DNA from: Nitrospiraceae bacterium
Lineage (GTDB): Bacteria; Nitrospirota; Nitrospiria; Nitrospirales; Nitrospiraceae
Assembly (NCBI GenBank): GCA_037446055.1
Contig: JBBIJI010000016.1
Location: forward strand, 1 to 64,000
DNA: 64,000 bases
Direction of reading: 5' to 3'
Shown: positions 9,388-61,307 of the stretch, one piece after another
Position numbering within the stretch: position 1 is the stretch's first letter
Layout: each line of letters begins with the position of its first letter
Position numbers and translations under genes: made by a program
Notes under the pieces: generated by a model
Seen by the model: only the letters and a program-made list of their open reading frames with translations
Databases searched by the model: none
Told to the model about the DNA's origin: nothing

Positions 9388-9564
9388 TGAATGTTGAATG
9401 AGGATAAGAAATCGCGTGGCTGATTATAGCAGGAGCTCGATTTGCACTCAGTATCGGCTGATTGCGAGCGGAGTTGACCGCCTGCGGGACTCTCGATACC
9501 ATGAAGCGGTGGAGTTGATCCAGGCAACATCGCTTTTGGAAACAGGATGACGAGGAGGCCGAAT

Positions 9565-10212
9565 ATGAGCAGCGGGAGATTATTCAAGACTTGGCCTTGG
9601 CCTCGTAGCCTCATGCTGGGGTTGGCTGTTTTCTTGCTGTGGGGTGGGGCGGTCCCTTCACACGCGCGAGATCTCATGACGCCGAAAGAACAGAGCCAAA
9701 CGGAGGTCGATTCCTCTCAAAGCCCATCATTCGATGAGCAGAAGAAAGGAGTGCCTCAATCGATCTTCGTCTGGATCAAGATGGCGAAGGGGTACGAGGT
9801 GGAGTGGGACACGTTTGGACGGAAGGGCTGGTACACCCAGGACCCGCGCCTCAAACCGATCGAACCGACGACGACCTTCACCCCGGATGCGCCGGCCGTC
9901 TATATCGTGTTCGAAGTGGCGCCTCTGGAGGATCCCGCCCAGTTCAGCGCCCAATGGTTCTTGGAAGAGGAGGGCGGCAAGTTGTCGGAAGCACCGATCG
10001 GCAAAGATACGCTGGAAGTGCCCGGCCACGAACGGTACGGATTTCTCGAGCTCAAACGGCCGGGAGATAAATGGTCAAGGGGCAAGTATCTGGTGAAGCT
10101 CTTCATTACACCCTTGGGCCAACAGCCATTTCACGCGGTGAATCAGGTCGGTACCATGCGGTTTACGATCGAAGACGCCCCGGTGAAGTCCAGCTCTGCG
10201 GTGCAACCTTAA
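9565..10212 (+). CDS. secreted hypothetical protein
   Basis: Strong Shine-Dalgarno GAGGAGG before the ATG at 9565. Signal peptide ends in HA-RD. Confidence 0.5.
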   Translation: MSSGRLFKTWPWPRSLMLGLAVFLLWGGAVPSHARDLMTPKEQSQTEVDSSQSPSFDEQKKGVPQSIFVWIKMAKGYEVEWDTFGRKGWYTQDPRLKPIEPTTTFTPDAPAVYIVFEVAPLEDPAQFSAQWFLEEEGGKLSEAPIGKDTLEVPGHERYGFLELKRPGDKWSRGKYLVKLFITPLGQQPFHAVNQVGTMRFTIEDAPVKSSSAVQP

Positions 10213-17004: not shown

Positions 17005-17083
<79 letters not shown>

Positions 17084-33493: not shown

Positions 33494-34897
33494 ATGAAGA
33501 GTCAGCGGGAAAAGACGATGACCGAAGAGTTGGGCGCCATCCTTGTCGTGGATGATGATGCCGAGATGCGGGATCTCGTCTGCGACGTACTGAGGGATCG
33601 AGGACATCAGGTGACGGCGATCGGCAGCGGGCAGGAGGCGCTCAAGCTGCTAGGCGAAGGGGATTACGATCTGGTCCTCACGGACCTGCGGATGAAGGGA
33701 ATGCTGGGTACCGAACTTTTGAATGAAGTCAAGCGGGCCTATCCGGACATCGGTGTCATCCTCATGACGGCGTTTGGATCCGTGGAAACTGCCGTCGAGG
33801 CGATGAAGCACGGAGCGAGCGACTATCTCACGAAGCCGGTGAAAAACGAGGAGTTGATTCGAGTGGTCGAGCGGGGAATCCGTGAGGCGTCGCTGCGCCG
33901 AGAAGTCAACCGGCTGAGGCGTGAGGTCCATAAAGAATACAGCTTCCATCAGATTCTCGGGAAGAGCAAGCCGATGCAGGAGGTGTTCGACCTCATCCGG
34001 CGCGTGGCCGACAGCCCGACGAACGTCTTAATTACGGGCGAGAGCGGGACCGGGAAGGAACTGGTCGCGAAGGCGATCCACTACAACAGCGATCGAAAGG
34101 ACGCGCCGTTCATTCCCGTCAACTGCGCGGCCATCCCCGAGCAACTCCTGGAGAGCGAGCTCTTCGGACACATGCGCGGCGCCTTCACGGACGCCAAGAT
34201 GGACAAGCGGGGGCTTTTCGAGGAAGCGCAGAAGGGAACCCTCTTCCTGGACGAGATCAGCGAGTTGCCGCTCATGCTGCAGGCGAAGCTGCTGCGGGCC
34301 ATTCAAGAGAAGGAAATTCGCCGGGTCGGTGCGACTAAGCCGATCGCGGTGGACGTGCGGATCATCGCCGCCACGAACCTAAATCTTGCCGACGAGGTCA
34401 AGGCGAAGCGATTTCGGGAGGATCTCTACTATCGGCTCAACGTCATCGAGCTCAAGCTGCCGCCTCTGCGAGAACGACGAGAAGACATCCCCTTGCTCGT
34501 CGACGCATTCTTGAAAAAGTGTGGAGAGACCCGCGGCAAAGCGGTGAAGGGCGTCGGTGAAGCGGCACTCGCCATGCTGATCGACTATACATGGCCCGGC
34601 AATGTGCGCGAATTGGAGAACGTGATCGAGCGGGCCGTGACTCTCAGCCGCGGCGAAAAGATTTCCCCCGACGATCTCCCGTCGACCGTACAGGGGGCGC
34701 GCGGCGACCGGCGCGTGCTCGACGAAGCCGCGGAGAAGACCCTGCCGTTGCATGAAATCGAGAAGGAATACATCAAGAAAATCCTCGAAAAGACCGGCGG
34801 GAACAAGTACCAGGCCGCCCACGCCCTTGGCATCGACCGCAAAACGCTGTATCGTAAGCTCGCCGAAATCGAAGGCAAGCCACAATCCGAAGAATGA
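33494..34897 (+). CDS. sigma-54-dependent Fis-family response regulator (NtrC-like)
   Basis: Receiver motifs (DLVLTDLRMKGMLG). Walker [16 protein letters not shown] variant of the GAFTGA loop. Motif [13 protein letters not shown]. Confidence 0.9.
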   Translation: MKSQREKTMTEELGAILVVDDDAEMRDLVCDVLRDRGHQVTAIGSGQEALKLLGEGDYDLVLTDLRMKGMLGTELLNEVKRAYPDIGVILMTAFGSVETAVEAMKHGASDYLTKPVKNEELIRVVERGIREASLRREVNRLRREVHKEYSFHQILGKSKPMQEVFDLIRRVADSPTNVLITGESGTGKELVAKAIHYNSDRKDAPFIPVNCAAIPEQLLESELFGHMRGAFTDAKMDKRGLFEEAQKGTLFLDEISELPLMLQAKLLRAIQEKEIRRVGATKPIAVDVRIIAATNLNLADEVKAKRFREDLYYRLNVIELKLPPLRERREDIPLLVDAFLKKCGETRGKAVKGVGEAALAMLIDYTWPGNVRELENVIERAVTLSRGEKISPDDLPSTVQGARGDRRVLDEAAEKTLPLHEIEKEYIKKILEKTGGNKYQAAHALGIDRKTLYRKLAEIEGKPQSEE

Positions 34898-34935: not shown

Positions 34936-36840
34936 ATGAAGGTCGTCAACAGTCCCGCTATGCGTGTTGCGACTTGGGCGATTCCGGTTCTCACCGTCGC
35001 GATCTTTACGCTCGATTCGTTCACACCGGTCGGAGTGGCTGTATCGGTCCTGTATATCATCCCGCTGCTGCTGACGTTCCTCTCCTCGCGTGAACGAGAC
35101 CCGCTCTACTTTTCCGCGGTCGCGACAGGGCTCATCTGGGTTGACGTCCTGTTGAAGCCCGCCGGTCTGTCGATTCCCTATGCAGCGGTCAACCGTTTGT
35201 TGGGCACGGTAGTCATCTGGGGGGGCGCCCTGGCACTCGTCCATTACAAGCGGACCCGGCGCCAGTTGATGTCAGAACGCGTTGAGCGGGCTCATGCCGA
35301 GGCCCTGATGGAGGCGGCGCAGGAAGCCCGCGCCTACGCCGACACGGCCTTGTTGGGCGCGTCTGCAGGCCGTCGAGAAGCGGAAGAGAAGTTTCTGATC
35401 AGCCAGCTCAGGCTGGAAGGCGTCATCCAGTCGGCCATGGATGCCATCATCACGGTGGACCAGGACCAGAACATCGTGTTGTTCAATCATGCAGCGGAAC
35501 AAATGTTCGGATGGTCCGCGCAGGATGCCATTGGGCAATCGCTGGACCGGTTCATCCCCGCTCGGTTCCGAGCGGCCCACCATCATCACATGGCTGAGTT
35601 CGGCAGGTCGGGGGCCACATCCAGACGGATGGGGACGCTCGGTCATGTCGTCGGTCTCCGCGCGACCGGGGAAGAGTTTCCCGTTGAAGCGGCCATCTCG
35701 CAGGTCGGCGTCGAAGGGAAGAAGTACTTTACGGTGATCTTGCGGGACATTACCGAGCGAAAAAAAGCCGAAGAGGCCCTTCGCGAGAGCGAGGAACGGT
35801 ATCGCCGTTTGATCGAAGTGTCGCCGGATGCAATCCTCGTCAATCGCGGGGACCGGATCGTCTTCGTCAACGACCAAGGGCTAAAGCTGTTCGGGGCTGT
35901 GAAGGCGGAGGAAATCCTCGGAAGGTCCCCCCTCGATCTCTTCCATCCGGACTATCATCAGGCGATCCGCGAACGTGTGCATCTTCTCCGCGAGGGGGCG
36001 AAGACGGTTCCCCTAATTGAGGAAAAGATTGTCCGGCTGGATGGAACCGTGCTCGATGTCGAAGTCGCGGCCGCAAGCTTCGTCGATCAGGATGGAGTCG
36101 GCATTCAGGTAATGATTCGAGACATTACCGAGCGCAAGCATCTCCAGGCCCAGTTGCGCAAAGCCGAGCGGTTGGCGGAGCTAGGGACGCTTGCGTCCGG
36201 CATGGCGCACGAGATCGGGACGCCGATGAACGTGATCCTCGGCCGGGCTGAGTATCTTCTGCAGCGGGTGAGGGAGGAACCGATCAAAAAAGGGCTGCAG
36301 ACCATCGTCAATCAGGTCGAGCGGATCACGAAGGTGATGAATCAGTTGCTTGCCTTTGCGAGAAGGCGTCCGCTAGAACGGCGACCGCTCGATTTGCGGC
36401 AGACGATCAGGGATAACCTCGAAATGTTCCAGGAGCGACTCGCGCGCAATCGTGTCAAAGTCGAAACCTCGTTCGCAAGCTCCTGCCCCTTGATCTGTGG
36501 CGATCCGGATCAGATGAGCCAGGTGATCATCAATCTCGTGATGAACGCGGTACATGCGATGCCGGAAGGGGGGACGTTGTCCATCGCGCTCGCGCCAGCC
36601 GGCAATGAGATGGTCGCCCTGTCTGTGAGGGATACCGGACACGGAATACCGCCGGACGTCAAGGATAAGATCTTCGATCCTTTCTTCACGACGAAGGAGT
36701 TCGGAAAGGGAACCGGCTTGGGTCTCACGGTGGTGAAAGGCATCGTGGAAGAACATGGGGGGGCGATCCGCGTCGACAGTGAACCAGGAAAGGGCACGAC
36801 GTTTACCATTCACTTGCCGGCATATGCCACGGACCCCTAG
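34936..36840 (+). CDS. PAS-domain sensor histidine kinase (membrane N-terminus, two PAS domains, HisKA, HATPase_c)
   Basis: H-box MAHEIGTPMNVILG. ATP-lid motifs DTGHGI and GTGLGL. Two PAS-like segments (ITVDQDQNIVLFN..., ILVNRGDRIVFVND...). Confidence 0.85.
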   Translation: MKVVNSPAMRVATWAIPVLTVAIFTLDSFTPVGVAVSVLYIIPLLLTFLSSRERDPLYFSAVATGLIWVDVLLKPAGLSIPYAAVNRLLGTVVIWGGALALVHYKRTRRQLMSERVERAHAEALMEAAQEARAYADTALLGASAGRREAEEKFLISQLRLEGVIQSAMDAIITVDQDQNIVLFNHAAEQMFGWSAQDAIGQSLDRFIPARFRAAHHHHMAEFGRSGATSRRMGTLGHVVGLRATGEEFPVEAAISQVGVEGKKYFTVILRDITERKKAEEALRESEERYRRLIEVSPDAILVNRGDRIVFVNDQGLKLFGAVKAEEILGRSPLDLFHPDYHQAIRERVHLLREGAKTVPLIEEKIVRLDGTVLDVEVAAASFVDQDGVGIQVMIRDITERKHLQAQLRKAERLAELGTLASGMAHEIGTPMNVILGRAEYLLQRVREEPIKKGLQTIVNQVERITKVMNQLLAFARRRPLERRPLDLRQTIRDNLEMFQERLARNRVKVETSFASSCPLICGDPDQMSQVIINLVMNAVHAMPEGGTLSIALAPAGNEMVALSVRDTGHGIPPDVKDKIFDPFFTTKEFGKGTGLGLTVVKGIVEEHGGAIRVDSEPGKGTTFTIHLPAYATDP

Positions 36841-37111
36841 TTGACAGTCATCGGCCGCCAGTGATCGGTCCTGAAAGCTGAAAACCGATCACAGATCACT
36901 CCCATCGGTGACTGTGGCATCCGGCGACAGGTTCACCCCCCAGGGCTGGGGTCTTTGTCGCCAGGCCTTTATCGTCCAGCCTGCTGCCCGCCAGTAGCTT
37001 CCTAAAAGACCGACGCAATTCTGAACGGTTGGGTCCGAGCCGGAGATGCCGTTGATGGCATATGCCTTGCTCTGTTTGGCATCAGACATGAGCCAGCTGA
37101 GAGGACAATGA

Positions 37112-37510
37112 ATGATGGTGGAAGGGAGAAAACTAGCCGTGTTGCTGGTCGTGGAAGATGATCAAGAGATGCGCAGCTTACTCTGTGATGAACTGTGGGG
37201 CGAGGGGTACCACCTGCGGGAAGCCAAGAATGGAGATGAGGCGTTGGCGGCAGTGATGGAATGCACCCCAGACCTCATTCTCACGGACCTGAAGATGCCC
37301 GCCGGCGGATTGGATTATGTGAACCGGTTACGCACCTTCGCTCCTCACTGTCCGATCATTCTCATGACGGCGTTCGGGGATATCCAACTCAAGGCGGCGG
37401 CGCTGAGGTCAGGCGCCACCGCCTATTTCGACAAGCCGGTGCGGGTATCGGAACTCAAGGCTACGATCAAGCGGTTGCTTCTGAATAACGAACTAGGCAG
37501 TGGAGTTTGA
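37112..37510 (+). CDS. single-domain response regulator (CheY-like receiver)
   Basis: Motifs VLLVVEDDQEMR, DLILTDLKMP, PIILMTAFGD. 132 aa. Confidence 0.8.
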   Translation: MMVEGRKLAVLLVVEDDQEMRSLLCDELWGEGYHLREAKNGDEALAAVMECTPDLILTDLKMPAGGLDYVNRLRTFAPHCPIILMTAFGDIQLKAAALRSGATAYFDKPVRVSELKATIKRLLLNNELGSGV

Positions 37511-37608
37511 GGCGAGAGGCAAGGGGCCCGCAAAGAAGGAAGTCAACTTAGTAGCAGAACGTGCCTAGCCCCGTGCCGCCTGCCCTCCGACAATCACAGA
37601 GGAACGAG

Positions 37609-39003
37609 ATGGCCGGATCTCAACCAAAGCATCCTTCGAGCCCTCCCTTCAGTGACCCGGTTCTTACGGCGCGCCTCGAAGCGATCAAACAGCTCGCCGG
37701 AGGATTGACCGATCGAGTGGCGGTCATGGATCGCAACTTCAATGTGATCTACGCGAACGAGTCGGCGTGGTCATCGGCCGCTGTCAGGAGCTCCGAAGCT
37801 CGTCAGGCCAAATGCTACGAAGCCTTTGCCCATCAAGCCGATCCTTGCGGCAATTGCCCGGCCATCAAAGTGTTCGAGACGCCGGAGGTGCGAGGCGTCT
37901 CCTGTTCAATCGACGGCGCGGCTTGCGGCATGGAGCAGGCCTTTCCACTCATTTCGAGTCAGGGCGAGGTTGGCTCCATGCTGGTGCTGTTCAAGAACGA
38001 GCAAGGCCAAATGGTTCGGGATCTCAAGCCTGTACAGGTCGAGAGTCCGTCACCGACGGTACGGGAGTCGTTGGGGGGGCTCCTCGGCCGGAGTCCCGCC
38101 ATGCAGCAGCTCTTCGACTTGATCAGCCTCGTGGCCGACAGTTCGGCGACCGTTCTGATCCAAGGCGAAAGCGGGACCGGAAAGGAACTCGTCGCCAAGA
38201 CGATCCACGAATTGAGTTACCGTCGGGACAAGCCTTTCGTGGTCGTCGACTGCGGGTCGCTGCCGGAAACCCTCCTCGAGAGCGAATTATTCGGTCATAC
38301 GAAGGGGGCCTTCACAGGTGCCGTGGCAAATAAGCGGGGCCTCTTCGAAGAAGCCGACGGGGGCACGATCTTCCTCGACGAGATCGCCGACACGACGCCG
38401 ACGTTTCAGGCGAAACTCCTTCGCGTCTTGCAGGAAGGAGAGGTCAAGCGGGTCGGCAGCAACCAACCGATCAAGATCGACGTCCGCATCGTGTCGGCGA
38501 CGAACAAGGATCTCAGCGAACTCGTCCGGTCCAAGGCCTTTCGTCAAGATCTCTACTATCGGTTGGCGGTGCTGCCGTTGTATCTGCCGCCCTTGCGGGA
38601 ACGAAAAGAGGATGTGCCGCTCTTGGTGCAGCACTTTGTCGCCGCCTCGTGCAAGCGGCATCGCCAACCGATCAGAACGGTCTCTCCGGCCGTCATGCAT
38701 GCGTTGACGGAAGCGCCCTGGCCGGGCAATATCCGTGAGTTGCAGCACTACATCGAGCGCGCCGTGGTCACGACGACCGGTCCTGAATTGGAGTGCAAGG
38801 ACCTGATCGCGGCGCGATCGGAATCAACGGCGGACGATCTGCGATCCGTTTCCCGCGGCGCGGCGCAACAGGCGGAACGGACCCGGATCCTTCAGGCGCT
38901 CCGACAGGCCGGCGGCAATCGCTCGAAGGCAGCCAAGCTTCTCAAGGTCAGCCGCGCCAGTCTCTACAATAAGCTTCGCGAATATCAGATAGACGAAGCG
39001 TAG
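37609..39003 (+). CDS. sigma-54 enhancer-binding protein with N-terminal Cys-rich PAS-like sensor (no receiver domain); likely activator of the downstream multicopper oxidase
   Basis: Walker [16 protein letters not shown] present ([15 protein letters not shown]). Motif [11 protein letters not shown]-terminal HTH. Sensor region carries C-x10-C-x2-C...C...C ([18 protein letters not shown]...CSIDGAACG). Start placed at the ATG at 37609 with an AGAGGA Shine-Dalgarno; the ORF-track GTG at 37561 is also possible. Confidence 0.85.
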
Positions 39004-39329
39004 CGTGCGATTCCAGACCCTTTCGCAAGCTTCCGCTTTGTGTCGGCATCAACCGCTCTCTTGAGCCACTGGAAGATGCCAGTGAAAGGCGGCGAGGGTT
39101 TTTCGGGAGGGACATCTGCCCCAACACTCCCCACTTTGCGTGGATGAACGTCTAACGGATTAGACAGCGCAACTCGTTGAATTCAAAGTATCCGACGATC
39201 TACAAAAAGGTTTGTGTCTAACCGGGTGGAATTTCGCCTCGCCCGAACGTAGGGCTAAGTTTCCTCGACCGCGCGCTAACCCTTGGTTTCGTCGAAGTAA
39301 TTCCTTGCGAGAGCCGGCTGGACAATTTG

Positions 39330-39345
39330 CGGCACATGAGTTGCG
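39330..39345 (+). promoter_or_regulatory. candidate sigma-54 (-24/-12) promoter cGGCAC-N5-TTGCg
   Basis: Read directly: ggcacatgagttgc with GG-N10-GC spacing. It lies about 290 nt upstream of the multicopper oxidase start and immediately downstream of a sigma-54 activator gene. Confidence 0.5.
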
Positions 39346-39358
39346 GTTAGCCGAGGCC

Positions 39359-39434
39359 GCTGGTGAAGGTCTGGGTGATTTTGGACCGGCCTCCGAATGA
39401 CCCGCCCTCCGCAGCGGAGGGACCCTTCACCAGC
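39359..39434 (+). other. structured 5' leader: 11-bp perfect outer stem (GCTGGTGAAGG/CCTTCACCAGC) enclosing a 7-bp inner hairpin (CCCTCCG-cag-CGGAGGG)
   Basis: Read directly. It lies between the sigma-54 promoter and the upstream ORF/multicopper oxidase gene. Confidence 0.35.
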
Positions 39435-39472
39435 TCTTAATCTTTAATTAACTTAGGCAAGGGGAGAGACGC

Positions 39473-39550
39473 ATGGGCAAAAAGGCCGGACACGTTCCTC
39501 GCCTCAAGCCCCTCGCCTTGTGCCGCTACCCCAAGTTGCTGTTTCGGTAG
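39473..39550 (+). CDS. 25-codon upstream ORF (MGKKAGHVPRLKPLALCRYPKLLFR) with Shine-Dalgarno GGGGAG; candidate leader peptide or small protein
   Basis: ATG at 39473 preceded by aaggggagag with a 6-nt spacer. TAG stop at 39548-39550. Too short for the ORF track. Confidence 0.25.
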   Translation: MGKKAGHVPRLKPLALCRYPKLLFR

Positions 39551-39625
39551 GAGGCCGGGAACCACGGAGCAAGGCTGTTTACACGAACCGCGCGGACGCG
39601 GTCATTTCACACAAGGAGGCCAGTT

Positions 39626-42600
39626 ATGACGTCTTACTTCTATAACCCCAAGCGCAGGCGGTGTCGCGACCAGGCGATGTTCGGCCTGCAAGCTGCGGTG
39701 TTCGCGAGTAGCCTGCTCGCTGCACCGTGGCTTTTTGCGGCCGGGCCGGGAGATCAGTCCCATCAGGGACATGCGACTCCTGTCTCAATGCCGGGCTGGA
39801 CCCAAGCATTGAAGGGCCAGACGGTGGTGGAAAACGCCATCGAGGGCCGCGCGGGCAACGCGGAAAAGATGGAGATGCAGCACCATCGTTTAATGCAGAA
39901 GCTCGAGCAGCAGGCCCAGCAGGATGCCAGGGCCCAGCAGACATCGGGCGCCTTCAACAGTATGTCGATGATGCACCAATATATGGGCCAGGACGGCAGC
40001 AGCTTCCTGCTCATGACGGATGCGGCGAAGGGCGAACCGGTGTTGAGCACAGGCGGTCGTTGCCCGGCCAACGCACCGACCAAGCAGTACGATGTCTCGA
40101 TGATCAACGTCGAGATCACGCTGAACCGGTGGTTGGATTACTATCCCGGTTACATGTACGTGCTGACGGAGAACCTGGACAAGGTTCGAGCGGAGGAGGC
40201 GAAGAACAAAGCGGCACGAGAGAAGGAGGGGTTCGACCCCGGGGCGGTGAACACGGGATTGCAGGGCGATATGATTCAACCATTGGTCCTGCGCGCCAAC
40301 CAAGGCGATTGCGTCAAGATGACGCTCCGCAACCAGATGGAAGGCGAGGATGGGAGTCTGTTCATCCAGGCCTCCAGCATGATCGTGAGCGCGACGGGCA
40401 AGCCGGCGACGACAACCAATCCCGATTCGATCCTGGCGCCCGGCAAGTCGCAGGAATTCGAGTGGTATATCCACCCCCACATGCAGGAAGGGGTGCGGCA
40501 GTTCCATTCCTACAGCCATGACCGCGAGTTGACGGTGCTGGGATTGTTCGGAGCCTTCGTCATCGAGCCGAAGGGTTCCAGGTATCTCGACCCGTTGGGG
40601 ACCGGCCCGGCGCCTGAGGCGAAGAGCGGCTGGCAAGTGATGATTGATAACGGCTCGGGCCCGGATTTCCGCGAGCACGTGATTTTCTATCACGAGGTCG
40701 GGGACGAGGCGTTCCGGCCCCTGAACAAGAAGGGCGACTTCTTGCCCCAGCGCGATCCGCTTACGGACGCCTATCGTCCAGGCGGCCGCGCACTGAACTA
40801 CCGCAGTGAACCGTTCGGTATCGATCAGATGCATTTGCAGCACGAGTACTTCGGGTTCGAAGATGAATCCATGGCCTATAGCGCCTATACCTTCGGCGAT
40901 CCGCCGACGACGATTCCGCGCGGATATCTCGGTGACCCGACGAAGTGGCGTATTGTGCATGGCGGGTCGGAAGTGTTCCATTCCCACCATCCCCACAGCG
41001 GGTCCATCCGTTGGATCCGCAGCCCGCGCGCGGAACCGCAGGACTTCTGGGCCGCAGCAGCGGACGGGCCGATCAAGTACCCAGTGGTTCGTACCAAATC
41101 CGACCGGGTCGATGTGGAAGTCATCGGACCGTCTGAGGCGCTGGATCTCGAGGCCGAAGGCGGCGCCGGGCAGTCTCAGCATTTAGCCGGCGAGTTTCTG
41201 TTCCACTGCCACGTGGCGCACCACTATGTCGCGGGCATGTGGGGCTATGGCCGGGTGTATAACACGTTGCAAGTCGGCCCAGGCCACACCGACACGATGC
41301 CGGACCTCCGGGAGTTGCCGGACCGTCAAGGCCGCATCAAGATGGGCGTGACCTCCGATAAGCTCATCGGCACCACGGTGGACTGGTTCGGCAAGCAGTT
41401 CAAGATCGTGGCGCGCAACCAGAAGACCGATTGGAAAGCCAATCCGGCAGTCGTGAACATCAAGGATTGGGTCGAGATGTATCTGCCGGCGCAGGGCAAG
41501 CCTGGCCATACGGACGACGAAAAGGGCCAGATCATGTCCTATGACGCGACCGTGTGGGATTGGAAGTGGGATGGTGATGTCGCGAAAGGCGAGCGGGAGA
41601 GCACGGCCAAGTATCCGAAGTATCCCGCCGCGGCCAAGTGGGATGACAGCACCAGACCGAACATCCTGTTCGATCCGACAACAGGCAAGATGTCGTGGCC
41701 GCTCTTTAAACCGCACTTCGGCAAGCGGGTGCCGTTCTCGGCCAACCACAGCGGTGCGCCCTGGTTGGAGCCGATCCACCAAGACGAAAACGGCGAGCGG
41801 ACGAGCGAACCGGCGCGGCCTGGCGAAAACGGCCGTTGGAGCTTGTGTCCGGATAATGCCAACACGAAGTTCTACAACATCAAGTTCATCCGGCTTCCCA
41901 TCACCCTGGCCAAGAAGCAGGGGAAGGAACCGCCGATCGTGGACAAGGACGGTCTGATCTACGTCTTGGCCGAGGAAGAAAGGCTGGTTCGGGCCAACGA
42001 CGACCTGAAATATCCGCTCGTGCTCCGCGCGAACGTGTATGACTGCGTGGACTCGATCCTGACCAGCGAGTGGGACGACGACGACTTCACCAACTTTCAG
42101 GCGTCCAAGATCAACATCCATCCGCATTTCTTCCAGTTCGACACGGGGAACTCGGATGGGGTGATCTCGGGCTTTGAATACGAGATGTCGGTCCGGCCCT
42201 ATACCATGCACGAGAAGAAGAACAAGCATGGGTTGCCGGTGCCGATGAACTCCAAGCTGGTGGAGGCAGCGAAAGCCGGTGCGAAGTCGATCAAGATCAA
42301 GATGGCGACCGGTGCGACCAAGTATCACGTGAATACGGAGTTGCAAGTCGGCGCGGACTGCTTGGAGCCCAGCAAGGACACTACGACGTCCTTGAAGCGG
42401 GACGCGAGCTGCGCCGAAGTTGCACGGATCAAGGAAATCAGCGGCGACACGATCACGTTCCACAAGCCGCTGAAGCACAACCATCCGGTGGGCGATATCG
42501 TGACGCCGGAGTTCGTGCGCTATCGGTGGTGGGTGGACGTGGACATGGGGACCGTGTTCTGGCATGACCACGCGTTCGGCGCGACGACCTGGCCGCACGG

Positions 42601-44572
42601 CGGATTCGGCGTGACGATCGTGGAGCCCTACGGGTCGACCTATCATGATCCGAAGAACGGCAAGCTGGTCTGGAGCGGTCCGATCGCGGACATTCACAGC
42701 AGCGAGCCGATCGGCTATGGAGTCAGCGGCAGCTTCCGTGAGCTGATGGTGTCCATCCACGACACGGTGCCTCACACCGTGAACGTGATCCAGGCGGGTA
42801 ATCCGCCCGGACAGCCGGTCGAAGTGGCGCTGGAAGCCGGTAAGACGGTGTCGTTCCAGATGCCGGAAAAGATCCTCAATGCGCCGAATCAGTACATCAA
42901 CGGCGGGACGCATACGACGGGGAGCGGTCTCAACTTCAGAGCCGAACCCTTTGCGCAACGTCTCGCGAACAATCCCGATACGTCCAAGCTGTTCAGCAGC
43001 GCGATCCACGGAGATCCCGATACGCCCTTGCTTCGCGCGTATGTGGGTGACACCGTGGTGTTCCGCCTGTTGCACCAGCTCATGAACGAGTCCCACGTGT
43101 GGACGCTCTCCGGCCATACGTTCCTGACGGAACGGTTTGCGGGAGACGCCAATCGGAAGTACTCGATTCACGTCGGGATTGCCGAGCGGTATGACCTGGT
43201 GACCAAGGCCGGTGGATTCCAAGGCATGCCGGGCGACTACATCCACTTCAATGGCCGAAGCTCGCACTTCGCCGAGGGTGGGTGGGGTATCTTCCGTGTG
43301 CTGGGGAAGCACGCGGACGACCTGATGCATCTGCCGACCGGCACGAAGCCGGTGGAAATCCCGGCCGTGCCGTCGTCAGTGTGCCCGTCCGATGCTCCTG
43401 TGAAGAACTTCAACGTGGTGGCGATGGATCGCCCGATGAAGCTCAACGCGAAGGCGCCGGACGCGATCGAGGTGGACTTCGAGCGTAAGATCGAGATGAC
43501 CGTGCCTGAGGGCAAGATCTACGCACTCGAGGAGGAAGTGACCAAAGTGGCCGGCGAAGTGATGCCGAATCCGCTCACGCTGCGGGTCAACTTGGGTGAC
43601 TGCATCAAAGTAAACCTGAAGAATAAGATGAAGGCGAGCCGGGCGTCGTTCTTCGCGCCGGGCCTGGCCTTCGATCCGAAAGACAGCCTGGGCCTGAACG
43701 TCGGGAACAACCCCGGCGATCAGACGATCGCTCCAGGCGAAAGCCGGACCTACACCTACTACGCGCATCCTGCCAACAAGGAGACGACGTCGTTGGTGTG
43801 GGATGGTGGCAACATCGTGACGAATCCGCGCAATGGTCTGTACGGCGCGGTGATCGTCGGGCCTCGTGGGTCGCAGTATCGCGATCCGGTCACGGGCGCC
43901 GACATCTCGCAGAAGAACTCCTGGAGGGCTGACGTGATCGTCGATGCCAGCCTGCCGGAGAATGTCGGCAAGCGGAATTACCGGGATGTGGCCCTCTTCT
44001 TCCAGGACGAGGACAACATCATCGGAACCGCGTTCATGCCCTATGTGCAGAACGTCGCGGGGCTGACGGCGGTCAACTACCGATCGGAACCGTACAAGTT
44101 CCGCGAGGAGCAGGGGTGCTCGCTGGGCAAGATCTTCCAGCCCTGCGTCGTAGCTAAGCCGGAAGATCCGGTGACGCCGTTGATCGAGGCGCACGCCGGC
44201 GATCCGGTCCGTATCCACGTCATCGGCGCCAACAGCGAGCAAAACGGGATGTTCGGGATCGAGGGCCATGAATGGCCGATCGAGCCCTACATGCCAGGGG
44301 CCGACCAGATCAGCGTCGTGGAGTACGCCGGGTCCGAGACCCTGGATGTCTTCCTCCGCGGCGGTGCGGGCGGACCGTATCGTCAGGTGGGAGACTTCGT
44401 GTGGTCCAACACCCGGTTGCCCTACACGCAATCAGGTCAGTGGGGCTACCTCCGTGTGTTGCCGGTCGGCGACTCCCGGATTCAACCGCTCGGCGCTGCG
44501 GCAATGGGCGCCAAGCGTGCGGAGACTCTACCGGAGCCCCAGGCTATTCCGACGGCCATGAAGCAGGAATAG
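39626..44572 (+). CDS. giant multicopper oxidase-like protein (1648 aa, multiple cupredoxin domains; MofA/MnxG-class size)
   Basis: Shine-Dalgarno AAGGAGG 6 nt upstream. N-terminal RR-containing signal-like segment. Copper motifs HSHHPHSG (HxH), LFHCHVAHHYVAGMWGY (HCH...H...GM), HPHFFQFD and WHDHAFGATTWPHGGFG (HxH). Confidence 0.85.
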   Translation: MTSYFYNPKRRRCRDQAMFGLQAAVFASSLLAAPWLFAAGPGDQSHQGHATPVSMPGWTQALKGQTVVENAIEGRAGNAEKMEMQHHRLMQKLEQQAQQDARAQQTSGAFNSMSMMHQYMGQDGSSFLLMTDAAKGEPVLSTGGRCPANAPTKQYDVSMINVEITLNRWLDYYPGYMYVLTENLDKVRAEEAKNKAAREKEGFDPGAVNTGLQGDMIQPLVLRANQGDCVKMTLRNQMEGEDGSLFIQASSMIVSATGKPATTTNPDSILAPGKSQEFEWYIHPHMQEGVRQFHSYSHDRELTVLGLFGAFVIEPKGSRYLDPLGTGPAPEAKSGWQVMIDNGSGPDFREHVIFYHEVGDEAFRPLNKKGDFLPQRDPLTDAYRPGGRALNYRSEPFGIDQMHLQHEYFGFEDESMAYSAYTFGDPPTTIPRGYLGDPTKWRIVHGGSEVFHSHHPHSGSIRWIRSPRAEPQDFWAAAADGPIKYPVVRTKSDRVDVEVIGPSEALDLEAEGGAGQSQHLAGEFLFHCHVAHHYVAGMWGYGRVYNTLQVGPGHTDTMPDLRELPDRQGRIKMGVTSDKLIGTTVDWFGKQFKIVARNQKTDWKANPAVVNIKDWVEMYLPAQGKPGHTDDEKGQIMSYDATVWDWKWDGDVAKGERESTAKYPKYPAAAKWDDSTRPNILFDPTTGKMSWPLFKPHFGKRVPFSANHSGAPWLEPIHQDENGERTSEPARPGENGRWSLCPDNANTKFYNIKFIRLPITLAKKQGKEPPIVDKDGLIYVLAEEERLVRANDDLKYPLVLRANVYDCVDSILTSEWDDDDFTNFQASKINIHPHFFQFDTGNSDGVISGFEYEMSVRPYTMHEKKNKHGLPVPMNSKLVEAAKAGAKSIKIKMATGATKYHVNTELQVGADCLEPSKDTTTSLKRDASCAEVARIKEISGDTITFHKPLKHNHPVGDIVTPEFVRYRWWVDVDMGTVFWHDHAFGATTWPHGGFGVTIVEPYGSTYHDPKNGKLVWSGPIADIHSSEPIGYGVSGSFRELMVSIHDTVPHTVNVIQAGNPPGQPVEVALEAGKTVSFQMPEKILNAPNQYINGGTHTTGSGLNFRAEPFAQRLANNPDTSKLFSSAIHGDPDTPLLRAYVGDTVVFRLLHQLMNESHVWTLSGHTFLTERFAGDANRKYSIHVGIAERYDLVTKAGGFQGMPGDYIHFNGRSSHFAEGGWGIFRVLGKHADDLMHLPTGTKPVEIPAVPSSVCPSDAPVKNFNVVAMDRPMKLNAKAPDAIEVDFERKIEMTVPEGKIYALEEEVTKVAGEVMPNPLTLRVNLGDCIKVNLKNKMKASRASFFAPGLAFDPKDSLGLNVGNNPGDQTIAPGESRTYTYYAHPANKETTSLVWDGGNIVTNPRNGLYGAVIVGPRGSQYRDPVTGADISQKNSWRADVIVDASLPENVGKRNYRDVALFFQDEDNIIGTAFMPYVQNVAGLTAVNYRSEPYKFREEQGCSLGKIFQPCVVAKPEDPVTPLIEAHAGDPVRIHVIGANSEQNGMFGIEGHEWPIEPYMPGADQISVVEYAGSETLDVFLRGGAGGPYRQVGDFVWSNTRLPYTQSGQWGYLRVLPVGDSRIQPLGAAAMGAKRAETLPEPQAIPTAMKQE

Positions 44573-44790: not shown

Positions 44791-44808
44791 TTAGAAAAGG
44801 AGGCCGAA

Positions 44809-45738
44809 GTGAAACAAATCATGACAAAGGCCGTCGTCGCGGTGCTCGTAGCCGGCTGCCTCAGCGTCCCCGCCTACGCCTATGAAGAGGTGACGGTCAC
44901 CGATGGCGGGAGTATCTCCGGATCCGTCACGCTTGTAGGGGAGGTGCCGAAGCCCAAGGGGTACAACCTCACGACGCTGCCGGATGCCATCTATTGCGGA
45001 CGTATCTCTGACGGCAGGGGGTGGCGTCTGCTCCAGCCGTTCAATGTGGGTGAGCACGGAGAATTCCGCCAGGTCGTCGTGTTGCTCCAGGAAATCGAGA
45101 AGGGGAAACCGTTCGGCGCGTACAAGCCTCCTCGGATCGAGGCGCGGGATTGCCGCTTCATGCCGTTCGTGACCGTCGTTCGCGATCACCACGATGTCGT
45201 GGTCGTAAATATGGACCCGGCGATGCACGATATCCAGGCCTATGAAACCTCGCATCTGGGGCCTCGGGTCTTGTTCAACGTTCCGCTTCCCATCAGCCCG
45301 CGGTATCCCCACGAAGCCGGGCTCAGCGCGCACTTCCACAAGCATTACGAAGGCACGCCGATGAACCAAACGGTCAAGATGACCAAAGGCCGCGAGATTT
45401 TCACGATGCAGTGCGGGTTTCACGCGTACATGGAAAGCTGGGCGTTGGTCGTGGATCATCCCTACTACGCGATTACCGACCAAGACGGCCGGTTCGAGAT
45501 CGACGACATTCCGCCCGGCACATACAAGGTCACCATCTGGCATCCCTATGTGCGCGAAACGTACGAAGAGACTGTGATCATCAAGCCGAAAGAGGAGACG
45601 ACCGTCGGCTTCAAAGTCGCTGCTCCGACCGGCCGCCTTTATGCCAATCAAATGGTCGAGAACGCATACGTGCGCTACACGATTACGGAGGACGTTCAGT
45701 CCCAAATCATTCCGACGTTGGAGAAGCAGACGTTCTAG
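44809..45738 (+). CDS. secreted cupredoxin-like protein (amicyanin-type C-x2-H-x2-M site) fused to a C-terminal beta-sandwich domain (carboxypeptidase-regulatory-like)
   Basis: GTG start with AAGGAGG 5 nt upstream. Lipobox VAGC. Motifs HHDVVVVNMDP (candidate His ligand) and QCGFHAYM (Cys-x2-His-x2-Met). C-terminal motif DGRFEIDDIPPGTYKVTIWH. Paralogous to 59356-60177. Confidence 0.7.
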   Translation: MKQIMTKAVVAVLVAGCLSVPAYAYEEVTVTDGGSISGSVTLVGEVPKPKGYNLTTLPDAIYCGRISDGRGWRLLQPFNVGEHGEFRQVVVLLQEIEKGKPFGAYKPPRIEARDCRFMPFVTVVRDHHDVVVVNMDPAMHDIQAYETSHLGPRVLFNVPLPISPRYPHEAGLSAHFHKHYEGTPMNQTVKMTKGREIFTMQCGFHAYMESWALVVDHPYYAITDQDGRFEIDDIPPGTYKVTIWHPYVRETYEETVIIKPKEETTVGFKVAAPTGRLYANQMVENAYVRYTITEDVQSQIIPTLEKQTF

Positions 45739-45746
45739 TGGGCAAT

Positions 45747-45822
45747 AGTCATTCGTCATTAGTCATTGGCGGGGGTCATCGAATTCTTTCACCAATGACC
45801 ATTGACCCTTGACCAGTGACGA
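45747..45822. repeat. family-2 palindromic repeat element (GTCATTNGTCATT / CCAATGACCATTGAC units)
   Basis: Read directly: agtcattcgtcattagtcattgg ... caccaatgaccattgacccttgaccagtgacg. Confidence 0.65.
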
Positions 45823-46852: not shown

Positions 46853-46868
46853 ACAAGGAGGCCGAGTA

Positions 46869-47852
46869 ATGGAAGCGAAGAATATGGGTGCGTATAGGAA
46901 GCTTGAGTGGGTCATCAACGCGTTGCTGATCGCGGCAGCGATCCTCGCGCTGGTGAAGGTCGCGTGGGGACTCGATACGCAGGATATCACGGTCGAGTGG
47001 ACCGCTGAAGGGAAGAAGATCGCCGCGCAACGGGTGGCCGACTGGCCGGTCAAGGAGGAGATGGTCCTGGTCCCTGCCGGCGAATTTCTCATGGGCAGCG
47101 ACAAGAAAGTGGATCGCTTGGCGTATCGCTCCGAGATGCCGCAGCGCAGCGTGTATCTCGATGCATTCGAGATCGACAAATACGAAGTGACCGCGCTGCA
47201 GTACCTCAAGTTTGTGCTGGCCGCGAACCGGCCACCACAGCTCGACTGGCGATATGACGGCGGCAACTTCCAGGAAACCATGGCGCATCACCCGATCATG
47301 CACGTGAGCTGGTACGACGCGGACGCCTATTGTAAGTGGGCCGGGAAGCGCCTCCCGACCGAAGCCGAGTGGGAGAAGGCGGCGCGCGGGACGGATGGTC
47401 GGATCAATCCGTGGGGCAACCAGACGGCAGGATTGAGCCGGGCGAACTTCGGCCGCTCGGGACTGTCCGGGCCGGTTCGCGACCGGCCCGAACGGCTGCT
47501 GCTGTATCCGCCGATCATCTCGGTCGACAAATATGAGAACGCCGTGAGTCCCTACGGCATCCATCAGATGATCGGCAACGTGGCTGAATGGGTGGCGGAC
47601 TGGTACCAACCCGATTATTACGCGACGGCTCCGAGCCGCAATCCGAAGGGGCCGGAAACAGGAACGCAAAAAGCCTTCCGCGGCGGCGGCTGGATCGACA
47701 GCACCACCACGATGCGGGCGGCGATGCGGAATGGGACCGACCCCAACACGAAGATGAATTGGCTGGGCTTCCGGTGCGCGCGCGACGCGCAGAATGATCG
47801 GGCCCTATCTGAGTCGCCGCAGGTACGGGTCTCGCGGGCGAGTGGGGAATAA
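46869..47852 (+). CDS. FGE-sulfatase fold protein, single-Cys PvdO/NirV-like subfamily, secreted (copy 2)
   Basis: Strong Shine-Dalgarno AAGGAGG. Signal/TM segment. Motifs MVLVPAGEFLMGSD, RGGGWIDSTT and GFRCARD. Confidence 0.85.
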   Translation: MEAKNMGAYRKLEWVINALLIAAAILALVKVAWGLDTQDITVEWTAEGKKIAAQRVADWPVKEEMVLVPAGEFLMGSDKKVDRLAYRSEMPQRSVYLDAFEIDKYEVTALQYLKFVLAANRPPQLDWRYDGGNFQETMAHHPIMHVSWYDADAYCKWAGKRLPTEAEWEKAARGTDGRINPWGNQTAGLSRANFGRSGLSGPVRDRPERLLLYPPIISVDKYENAVSPYGIHQMIGNVAEWVADWYQPDYYATAPSRNPKGPETGTQKAFRGGGWIDSTTTMRAAMRNGTDPNTKMNWLGFRCARDAQNDRALSESPQVRVSRASGE

Positions 47853-60189: not shown

Positions 60190-60265
60190 CGAACAGCAAG
60201 TAGCTGGCAGCTCGTAGCGGGCAGATGATTCCGGGCTGTCCGCTATGAGCTGTTCGCTCAGCTCA
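60190..60265. repeat. family-3 repeat element (gaacagcaagtagctggcagctcgtagcgggcag ... cgctatgagctgttcgctcagctc)
   Basis: Read directly. Confidence 0.6.
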
Positions 60266-60477: not shown

Positions 60478-60501
60478 TGAGGCGGGAGGCCGAGGTCTTA
60501 C

Positions 60502-60571
60502 GAGTTCTGAATTCTGAGCTAGGAGTTCTTGCTGACAAGTCAGAACTCAAACCTTTCAATTCAGAACTGCT
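60502..60571. repeat. family-1 palindromic repeat element (cgagttctgaattctgagctaggagttcttgc ... gtcagaactcaaacctttcaattcagaactgc)
   Basis: Read directly. Confidence 0.65.
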
Positions 60572-60611
60572 GCCTCTCGCCCCATGCCCGGCTTGTTCAA
60601 GGAGGCCGACA

Positions 60612-61307
60612 ATGAGCGTTGGCACCCTGCGCGGTTTTGTAGCTCTTTACTTATTGCTGTTTGCCTTTTGCCTTGTCCCTTCACCGGGGTGGGCCCATGA
60701 GCTGAGCCAGCCGGTCCCGATCTTACTCGAGCGCATGCACGATACGCTCTTGCTGATCAACCGAGGGAAACCGGATCAGGCTTACGCGAAGGCGGCCTCG
60801 ATCCGGGAGGACTTTCCCGACACGAGCCGCGGACGTCTGATCCAGGAAGTCGGCTTGCTTCGCACGGCCGTGCGCCTCGATTCCGCCTATCGGACCTCGC
60901 TCGCGGAGGAGACTGCCGGCGCACTGGATCGGAAAGACGTGCCTCGCCTCCAGAAGGCGCTCTACTCTCTGTCATTCCTCCTCATCCTCGAAAAATTGGA
61001 CCGACTGGACCTGCTCATGCAGGATTCGAGCGCGCGCGTCGAAACCCGGGCCGCCGTGCTGGCGGTCGCCCATGACTATTTCTCCCACATGTTCGAGCGG
61101 CTCCTGAAATTCCGCGCGCCGGAGCAGATCAAAACGTTGGACCGATTGCTCGACCGAATGGCGGTCGCGGTCAAGCGGGGGGATGCGACTGGGCTGGAAG
61201 CCTTGCGGGCCGAGTTCCTGGCTGGGCTGGTTGACGGCTTTCAGGAGCAGCTTGTCGGCGCGCAGTTACGGTCGATCGTGGCTGCGGCCAAGGGATCAAG
61301 AGCATGA
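60612..61307 (+). CDS. secreted hypothetical protein
   Basis: Shine-Dalgarno GGAGG. Signal peptide ends in GWA-HE. Helical Leu/Ala/Arg-rich sequence. Confidence 0.5.
   Translation: MSVGTLRGFVALYLLLFAFCLVPSPGWAHELSQPVPILLERMHDTLLLINRGKPDQAYAKAASIREDFPDTSRGRLIQEVGLLRTAVRLDSAYRTSLAEETAGALDRKDVPRLQKALYSLSFLLILEKLDRLDLLMQDSSARVETRAAVLAVAHDYFSHMFERLLKFRAPEQIKTLDRLLDRMAVAVKRGDATGLEALRAEFLAGLVDGFQEQLVGAQLRSIVAAAKGSRA

Follow-up and report, generated by a model that had tools for sequence, protein, structure and literature searches.

The operon of a giant multicopper oxidase (MCO) in a 64-kb stretch of a Nitrospira genome (Nitrospiraceae, GCA_037446055.1, contig JBBIJI010000016.1; the whole stretch is called the window below) is preceded by a control region that is probably best explained by two levels of regulation: transcription from a sigma-54 promoter, driven by an enhancer-binding protein (EBP), and a cis-acting, riboswitch-like leader RNA that gates translation. 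Four observations carry this explanation: the promoter, its spacing and the dyads upstream of it are conserved; the leader RNA has a covarying fold; this RNA is linked exclusively to MCO genes; and the apex of one of its helices is complementary to the Shine-Dalgarno (SD) sequence of the oxidase gene and to boxes within the leader. The leader RNA is a new family among the structured cis-regulatory 5' leaders; sigma-54 control of a giant MCO is of a known kind.

The MCO is 91% identical to a Nitrospira tepida protein annotated as 'putative Manganese oxidase', has hundreds of homologues in Nitrospira and matches the MnxG model weakly, below threshold. An alignment of 15 MCO homologues was used as query to obtain the best 80 Nitrospira loci, which consist of about 48 orthologues (N-terminal identity 67-87%) and a group of paralogues (57-67%). 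Two nearer relatives with 91% identical MCOs (L084 and L081) were added by exact-protein look-up. With seven further instances from a metagenome pattern scan, the sets comprise 57 distinct promoter instances, 55 distinct copies of the RNA, 49 distinct leaders and 47 loci for the sites upstream of the promoter.

The element is almost certainly a real structured RNA. Its consensus fold, calculated with RNAalifold, is a three-way junction of stems P1, P2 and P3 (Table 1), first obtained from 44 distinct aligned copies; the 11-bp perfect stem enclosing a 7-bp hairpin that had been described in the original prediction is present within it. The fold in the window has a free energy of -43.5 kcal/mol (z = -5.9) and none of 200 shuffled sequences was as stable; for the complete leader of 294 nt the folding energy is ordinary (z = -1.1). 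In the alignment of 44 copies, 97.7% of the cells are paired and 13 of the 24 pairs have changed on both sides; in the covariance-model alignment of 55 copies, 98.2% of the cells are paired and 14 of the 24 pairs have compensatory changes, with 101 double-changed cells. None of 500 shuffles matched either alignment. The two alignments themselves have 68-101 double-changed cells. In controls with slid partners, 38-57% of the cells were paired, and 39-57% in the control for the 44 copies. The covariation in orthologous loci that had been proposed as a check is thus strong, and it supports the earlier suggestion of a regulated, riboswitch-like leader.

Variation is distributed very unevenly over the structure. 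P1 and P3 vary freely yet stay paired: the arms of P1 are, for example, CTGGTGGAAG / CTTCCACCAG, CTGATGGGGG / CCCCCATCAG or GCCGACGC / GCGTCGGC, and P3 is a helix of 6-7 bp that is mostly capped by a GNRA loop (GCAA, GUAA or GUGA). P2 is a long, irregular helix, and 13 contiguous nucleotides at its apex, GGACCGGCCUCCG, are invariant in all 55 distinct copies. About 60 cells of the alignment are G-U pairs, and the covariance scores are 57-102 bits on the sense strand and about 20 bits on the antisense strand; both indicate that the structure is strand-specific and belongs to an RNA of the mRNA strand. The copy in the window matches the covariance model with 89 bits (E = 4e-19). Searches with Rfam 15 gave no match at gathering thresholds in the window apart from a tRNA gene (17005-17078) and none at E <= 10 in 38950-39750, and literature searches for a Nitrospira riboswitch or an MCO leader motif found no earlier description.

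Within the 1.8 Mb searched, the element was found ahead of giant MCO genes only. With the covariance model each orthologous locus gives a single hit; the rest of the window and the paralogue loci give none. Cultured carriers include N. defluvii (L018), N. tepida (L081) and N. lenta. For all 55 distinct aligned copies, either the start of a giant MCO follows 125-360 nt downstream or the copy precedes a confirmed giant MCO homologue in a metagenome locus. Two loci have an extra copy downstream of the first MCO: in L031 (11540-16651) it precedes a tandem second giant MCO with its own TGGCAT-N5-TTGC promoter and GGAGGCCGG as SD, and in L051 (11588 onward) the same layout, including the ribosome-binding site (RBS), stands before an open reading frame (ORF) of 1627 amino acids. 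A pattern scan of metagenomes with GGACCGGCCTCCGN5CC returned 120 stretches, mostly chance matches, of which the covariance model identified seven as true elements; all seven precede MCO homologues (49-80% N-terminal identity) with a -24/-12 element and a GGAGGCC SD. Matches in L087 and L204 were weak, lay in GC-rich DNA and were discarded.

The sigma-54 promoter in front of the RNA is very probably real. The original prediction had pointed to a GGCAC-N5-TTGC element (39331-39344) with correct spacing just downstream of an EBP gene. This element is present, and promoter, spacing and dyads are kept in 47-57 loci. Of the 12 positions specified in TGGCAC-N5-TTGCW, the promoter sequence cGGCACatgagTTGCg matches 9. 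When two mismatches at most are allowed, the window has 27 matches to this motif, with 24.65 expected; the motif is thus not enriched, so the promoter has to be judged by comparison across loci. GGCA[CT]-N5-TTGC is found 180-420 nt before the MCO start in every orthologous locus with upstream sequence, with AGCAT replacing GGCAT in two of them (L010 and L032). In the 57 distinct instances, GG is kept in 55, C in 56 and both A and TTGC in all. The distance between TTGC and the first base of P1 is 12-15 nt, and 13-14 nt in 53 of the 56 cases measured. Transcription is predicted to start near 39356; the RNA element follows the promoter directly in all the loci, and P1 would begin at about +3/+4, 2-3 nt from the predicted 5' end. 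A scan of 38950-39700 for sigma-70-like promoters found none.

Three conserved sites lie further upstream. The distal dyad, which belongs to one of the inverted repeats listed for the window, has the family consensus TGTCYAA-N4-5-TTRGACA (the first T is optional); its position relative to the promoter is conserved among the orthologous loci, at -182 +/- 4. The proximal site TGTCTAA-N5-TGGAA occurs in 40 of the 47 loci, at -116 +/- 4, and a TGCCCC-like box in 41 of the 47 (median -215). The positions of the dyads are as expected for EBP binding sites, which typically lie about 100-200 bp upstream, and the EBP may well bind there. Conservation, fixed spacing, the dyads, the EBP gene upstream, the absence of a sigma-70-like site in the region scanned and precedents in the literature (sigma-54 regulators are established in Nitrospira, PMC6606698) together make the promoter very probable.

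The most likely activator, judged from gene order, is the EBP encoded directly upstream. This protein has no receiver domain; a Cys-containing N-terminal region with no Pfam match is followed by the AAA+ and HTH_8 domains, and searches of NCBIfam gave sub-threshold matches to NifA/NtrC-type models and nothing better. About 30 of the 48 orthologous loci have a homologous EBP gene on the upstream side of the MCO, in most cases directly before it, with a gap of 440-1300 nt. N. tepida (L081/L082, 296-2411) keeps the MCO promoter, the dyads and the leader element, and the neighbours of its MCO are a divergently oriented LuxR-type two-component pair instead of the EBP, indicating that the activator gene can sit elsewhere in the genome. 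A second sigma-54-type site, TGGCATatgccTTGCT, lies at 37056-37071, about 55 nt upstream of the receiver gene, and has an equivalent in 18 of the 22 loci that have a homologous receiver gene; this suggests a sigma-54 cascade or autoregulation.

The invariant apex of P2, CCGGCCUCC, is complementary to the SD region of the MCO. The strong AAGGAGG before the MCO start that had been noted earlier is present (39613-39619), and it is part of a longer sequence, AAGGAGGCC: GGAGGCC is complementary to the apex, the two are among the inverted repeats listed for the window and the duplex would have -18.7 kcal/mol. GGAGGCC is found at most 20 nt from the ATG in 45 of the 49 leaders, usually as GGAGGCCG and ending 4-5 nt before the ATG. 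The anti-SD of 16S rRNA covers GGAGG only, which leaves the CC(G) extension unexplained by ribosome binding. Neither the invariant apical loop nor its complementarity to the extended SD and the boxes was part of the original prediction.

The same apex is matched within the leaders. These are 80-315 nt long, otherwise unconserved and unalignable between clades. In nearly all of them P1 is followed, at a distance of 5-50 nt, by a (GA)GGCCG(G) box (box 1 in the window). Many clades have an extra box of 9-12 nt, (C)GGAGGCCGG(UC), whose match tracks the P2 sequence on both sides; in the window this is box 2, a perfect 9-nt complement that is also listed as an inverted repeat. Perfect complements of 7 nt or more occur internally in 35 of the 49 leaders, compared with 3.8 (maximum 9) in dinucleotide shuffles; the reversed-target control for this count was uninformative because the target is nearly palindromic. 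A small hairpin about 12 nt 5' of the SD has a counterpart in most orthologues on visual comparison, of the type AACCA-CCGCC-loop-GGCGG, positioned 10-15 nt upstream of the SD and preceded by AACC(A); its stems differ by locus (CCGCC/GGCGG, CCCGCG/CGCGGG, CCAGC/GCTGG).

Table 1. Features of the giant MCO locus; positions are those of the window
Feature	Position	Strand	Details
NtrC-type response regulator gene	33494-34897	+	upstream of MCO
PAS histidine kinase gene	34936-36840	+	upstream of MCO
Stand-alone receiver gene	37112-37510	+	upstream of MCO
Sigma-54 EBP gene	37561-39003	+	Pfam Sigma54_activat (1.2e-71), AAA_lid_14, HTH_8
Conserved box CTGCCCCA-N4-CCCCA	39116-39133	+	~215 nt upstream of promoter; from alignment of upstream regions
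Distal dyad GTCTAA-cgga-TTAGACA (candidate EBP site UAS1)	39150-39166		centre ~-198 from predicted start
Proximal site TGTCTAA-N5-TGGAA (candidate UAS2)	39215-39231		centre ~-133 from predicted start
Sigma-54 -24/-12 promoter cGGCACatgagTTGCg (very probable)	39330-39345	+	GG 39331-32, GC 39343-44, 10-nt separation
Three-way-junction leader RNA	39359-39434	+	~76 nt; consensus fold
P1 GCTGGTGAAGG / CCTTCACCAGC	39359-39369 / 39424-39434		11-bp perfect stem; listed inverted repeat
P2, outer GGGU / ACCC	39373-76 / 39400-03
P2, apical GGA / UCC	39383-85 / 39392-94
P2, loop CCGGCC	39386-91
P2 apex CCGGCCUCC			GGA-CCGGCC-UCC region; invariant; complement of SD and boxes
P3 CCCTCCG-cag-CGGAGGG	39405-39421		arms 39405-11 / 39415-21; listed inverted repeat
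25-codon upstream ORF MGKKAGHVPRLKPLALCRYPKLLFR	39473-39550	+	GGGGAG upstream; spans box 1, ends at box 2
Box 1 AGGCCGG	39483-39489	+	complement of P2 loop CCGGCCU; duplex -15.1 kcal/mol
Box 2 GGAGGCCGG	39550-39558	+	perfect 9-nt complement of CCGGCCUCC; duplex -24.1 kcal/mol
Small hairpin ACCGCG-cgga-CGCGGT	39587-39602	+	~12 nt 5' of SD
Extended SD AAGGAGGCC of MCO	39613-39621	+	contains AAGGAGG; ATG at 39626
Giant MCO gene	39626-44572	+	1648 aa; Pfam Cu-oxidase_3
CarboxypepD_reg-like gene	44809-45738	+	downstream of MCO
Two FGE-sulfatase-family genes	second starts at 46869		downstream of MCO

The extended SD is not restricted to the MCO: GGAGGCCG also stands before the CarboxypepD_reg-like gene (44799-44806) and before the second FGE-sulfatase gene (46857-46864), and the extended SD of downstream genes is repeated in many orthologous loci (e.g. 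L005, L013, L016, L018, L024, L037). None of the upstream regulator genes scanned has it, and on its sequence distribution the extended SD looks like an operon-wide signature. The paralogous MCOs have a sigma-70-like promoter, GGGGTTGACA-N17-TATCGT, without the leader element; their loci (L040-L080, e.g. L058, L069, L075) have an invariant AAGGAGGCCGGTCCATG 17 nt before the MCO start (this RBS is also given as GGAGGCCGGUCC). Over 12 nt this sequence is perfectly complementary to the P2 apex; its exact complement is GGACCGGCCUCC. This suggests a shared trans factor or an action of the element in trans.

Two unlinked genes of the window, at 9565 (215 amino acids) and 60612 (231 amino acids), likewise use GGAGGCCG as SD (9554-9567 and 60601). 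Both encode proteins with hydrophobic, signal-peptide-like N-termini and no Pfam match, and the gene at 60612 has an extra upstream GGGAGGCCGAGG box (within 60483-60614) resembling the box-plus-SD layout of the MCO.

A mechanism can be outlined as follows. The EBP would activate sigma-54 transcription from the two dyads, with a start near 39356, and the first ~80 nt of the mRNA would fold into the three-way junction. Pairing of the apex with a box would leave the SD free and translation on; pairing of the apex with the SD would block initiation and turn translation off. Some signal (a ligand, a protein or an RNA) would shift the balance between box and SD, and the 5'-terminal P1 may also shield the mRNA from 5'-end-dependent decay. 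That the element acts in cis after transcription is likely. Pairing of the apex with SD and boxes is a tentative account of how it does so, for which we would give somewhat less than even odds, and the sensing of a small-molecule ligand is possible yet rather doubtful.

Several points weigh against this explanation. Taken from the window alone, the sigma-54 motif is at chance level. The copies of the leader share their phylogeny, so the shuffle statistics overstate their independence. Apex, SD and boxes are invariant, so covariation cannot test their pairing, for which conserved complementarity is the support. One apex cannot fill the SDs of three operon genes plus the boxes at once. The paralogues keep an even longer match without the cis element, indicating that conservation of the extended SD needs no such element. 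Finally, comparison of the leaders gave no consensus alternative structure after P1 beyond GGCC/GGCC.

A sharper version of the cis-acting leader is a ligand-binding riboswitch, for example for Cu, Mn or a cofactor of MCO maturation, in which the junction, the internal loop of P2 and a pseudoknot with the box would form the aptamer and the SD the expression platform. The covarying three-way junction, the invariant unpaired or irregular nucleotides, the GNRA-capped P3, the position in the 5' UTR of a single gene family and the possible loop-tail pseudoknot are all consistent with it; the narrow taxonomic and gene range, however, suits a leader that binds a protein or an RNA equally well, and a compact aptamer would not usually have so variable a distance between P1 and box (5-50 nt). 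We regard this version as possible, with the odds clearly against it. A still more specific idea, which we consider speculative and rather unlikely, is that the giant (putative Mn) MCOs of Nitrospira, nitrite-oxidising as well as comammox, have in this element a dedicated orphan riboswitch or a riboregulator that acts both in cis and in trans: a signal of the metal or cofactor type would be sensed by the apex, which would coordinate, by pairing over 8-12 nt, the translation of every cistron with GGAGGCCG, including the sigma-70-driven paralogue.

The element could instead be purely a 5' stabiliser, a stable structure that blocks a 5'-end-dependent RNase, in which case the complementarity of apex and SD would have no function. 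Stem-loops at the 5' terminus with at most 4 unpaired nucleotides stabilise mRNAs such as ompA, and all 57 instances place the beginning of P1 at ~+3/+4 of their predicted transcripts; the great stability of the fold (-43.5 kcal/mol) would suit this role too. A stabiliser needs the stem alone, yet all 55 distinct copies share the same 13 contiguous apical nucleotides, with free drift in P1 and P3, and matching boxes of 7-12 nt persist in leaders that are otherwise unconserved. We consider a pure stabiliser improbable.

Slightly less probable still is a trans- or dual-acting riboregulator, in which the 5' element, maybe as a processed fragment, would pair with GGAGGCCG(GUCC) RBSs on other messages (the paralogous MCO, the downstream cistrons and a few other genes). 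The invariance of the paralogue RBS as exact complement of GGACCGGCCUCC, the joint presence of orthologue and paralogue in at least 8 assemblies and the recurrence of the same SD at 44799, 46857, 9554 and 60601 in the window point in this direction. On the other side, there is no terminator or clear U-tract after P1, and the complete genome AP038806 has the paralogue and no orthologue among the best 80 loci.

Attenuation that depends on a leader peptide or upstream ORF (uORF) is very improbable. The original prediction had described a short ORF with a good SD in the leader, and a 25-codon ATG ORF with an SD-like GGGGAG is indeed present; its role as leader peptide does not hold. L084, with the same histidine kinase-receiver-EBP-MCO synteny, lacks the uORF, and so does N. 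tepida (L081); both have MCOs that are 91% identical, and in both the corresponding region differs by indels that are not multiples of three. None of the 49 distinct leaders examined has the uORF. Loss of both the sigma-54 element and the uORF in orthologous loci had been named as evidence against the earlier reading: the former is kept and the latter is missing. A run of regulatory codons is lacking in the uORF. The scan of 38950-39700 detected no terminator-like site in the leader, which also speaks against the transcription attenuator proposed earlier. Lack of conservation of the uORF and lack of a terminator in the leader thus lead us to reject leader-peptide attenuation, and on sequence comparison we judge the uORF to be a chance ORF with no conserved role. 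A recurrent leader ORF, AUGACCC... (MTHSFARR...), was rejected as an artefact of the nucleotide conservation of P2 and P3; its ends are variable and in most cases it has no SD-like sequence. Within the uORF region, positions 39497-39524 contain a direct repeat of 14 nt in tandem, CCTCGCCTCAAGCC / CCTCGCCTTGTGCC.

An operator or protein-binding palindrome at the DNA level downstream of the promoter can be dismissed with similar confidence: P1 and P3 are inverted repeats in DNA as well, but on the opposite strand the ~60 G-U cells turn into A-C mismatches, the compensatory changes preserve pairing and not sequence, and the scores of 57-102 bits on the sense strand compare with ~20 on the antisense strand.

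The closest known system for the promoter is that of the Mn-oxidising MCO genes mnxG and mcoA of Pseudomonas putida GB-1, which have IHF/sigma-54 promoters that need MnxS1/S2 and MnxR (PMC11930936). Both systems combine a very large MCO, a -24/-12 promoter, a dedicated EBP/two-component pathway and activator sites at typical distances. They differ in that P. putida belongs to another phylum, its MCO is distant (see the sub-threshold MnxG match) and no structured leader RNA has been described there; the Nitrospira EBP lacks a receiver and is encoded in an operon of its own with a conserved sigma-54 promoter.

Three other kinds of leader invite comparison. The SAM-II, preQ1 and ZTP riboswitches hide the SD through a pseudoknot between loop and tail. 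The Nitrospira leader resembles them in its conserved, aptamer-like fold in the 5' UTR, the covarying stems, the invariant core and the segment complementary to the SD, but its putative anti-SD is the loop of an apical helix ~230 nt from the SD, there are additional candidate decoy boxes and Rfam has no match. Stabilisers are known from Bacillus mRNAs (the SD-like STAB-SD) and from the 5' UTR of E. coli ompA (a stem-loop); what they share with the Nitrospira leader is a stable stem only a few nucleotides away from the 5' terminus and a long leader that contains SD-like sequences. They need neither an invariant loop nor a three-way junction, whereas the loop is the most conserved part in Nitrospira. 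With the leader-peptide attenuators of trp, his and pheA the likeness is a short ORF beside hairpins in a long leader; the Nitrospira uORF differs from them in being unconserved, without a regulatory codon run and without a terminator.

In soils, waters and treatment plants, Nitrospira dominate as nitrite oxidisers and as complete nitrifiers; to our knowledge, nearly all of them carry MCOs of ~1,600 residues with a possible role in Mn oxidation. The locus appears to be controlled in three layers, by a sigma-54 cascade of two tiers, a deeply conserved leader RNA of its own and an operon-specific extended SD. Such tight control suggests that expression of the oxidase is conditional, and promoter and leader may serve as handles for finding the inducing condition and hence the function of the enzyme. 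For RNA biology, the 55 distinct sequences with their strong covariation make a well-supported orphan motif that Rfam does not contain; a putative anti-SD on an apical loop far from the SD, combined with candidate decoy boxes and an operon-wide extended SD, would be unusual.

Two further observations concern the window at large. Long ORFs overlap on opposite strands at 44791-45759 (-) and 44809-45738 (+); the Pfam hits and the conserved RBS are on the + ORF and the ORF on the - strand is probably spurious. A long imperfect hairpin, GCGAACAGC-AGTAGCTGG-AGC...GCTAT-AGCTGTTCGC, is found in an intergenic region unrelated to the MCO locus (60190-60262); hairpins of this type are also inserted in the MCO leaders of L025, L030, L038, L047, L059 and L193, and it may be a REP-like repeated element of Nitrospira.

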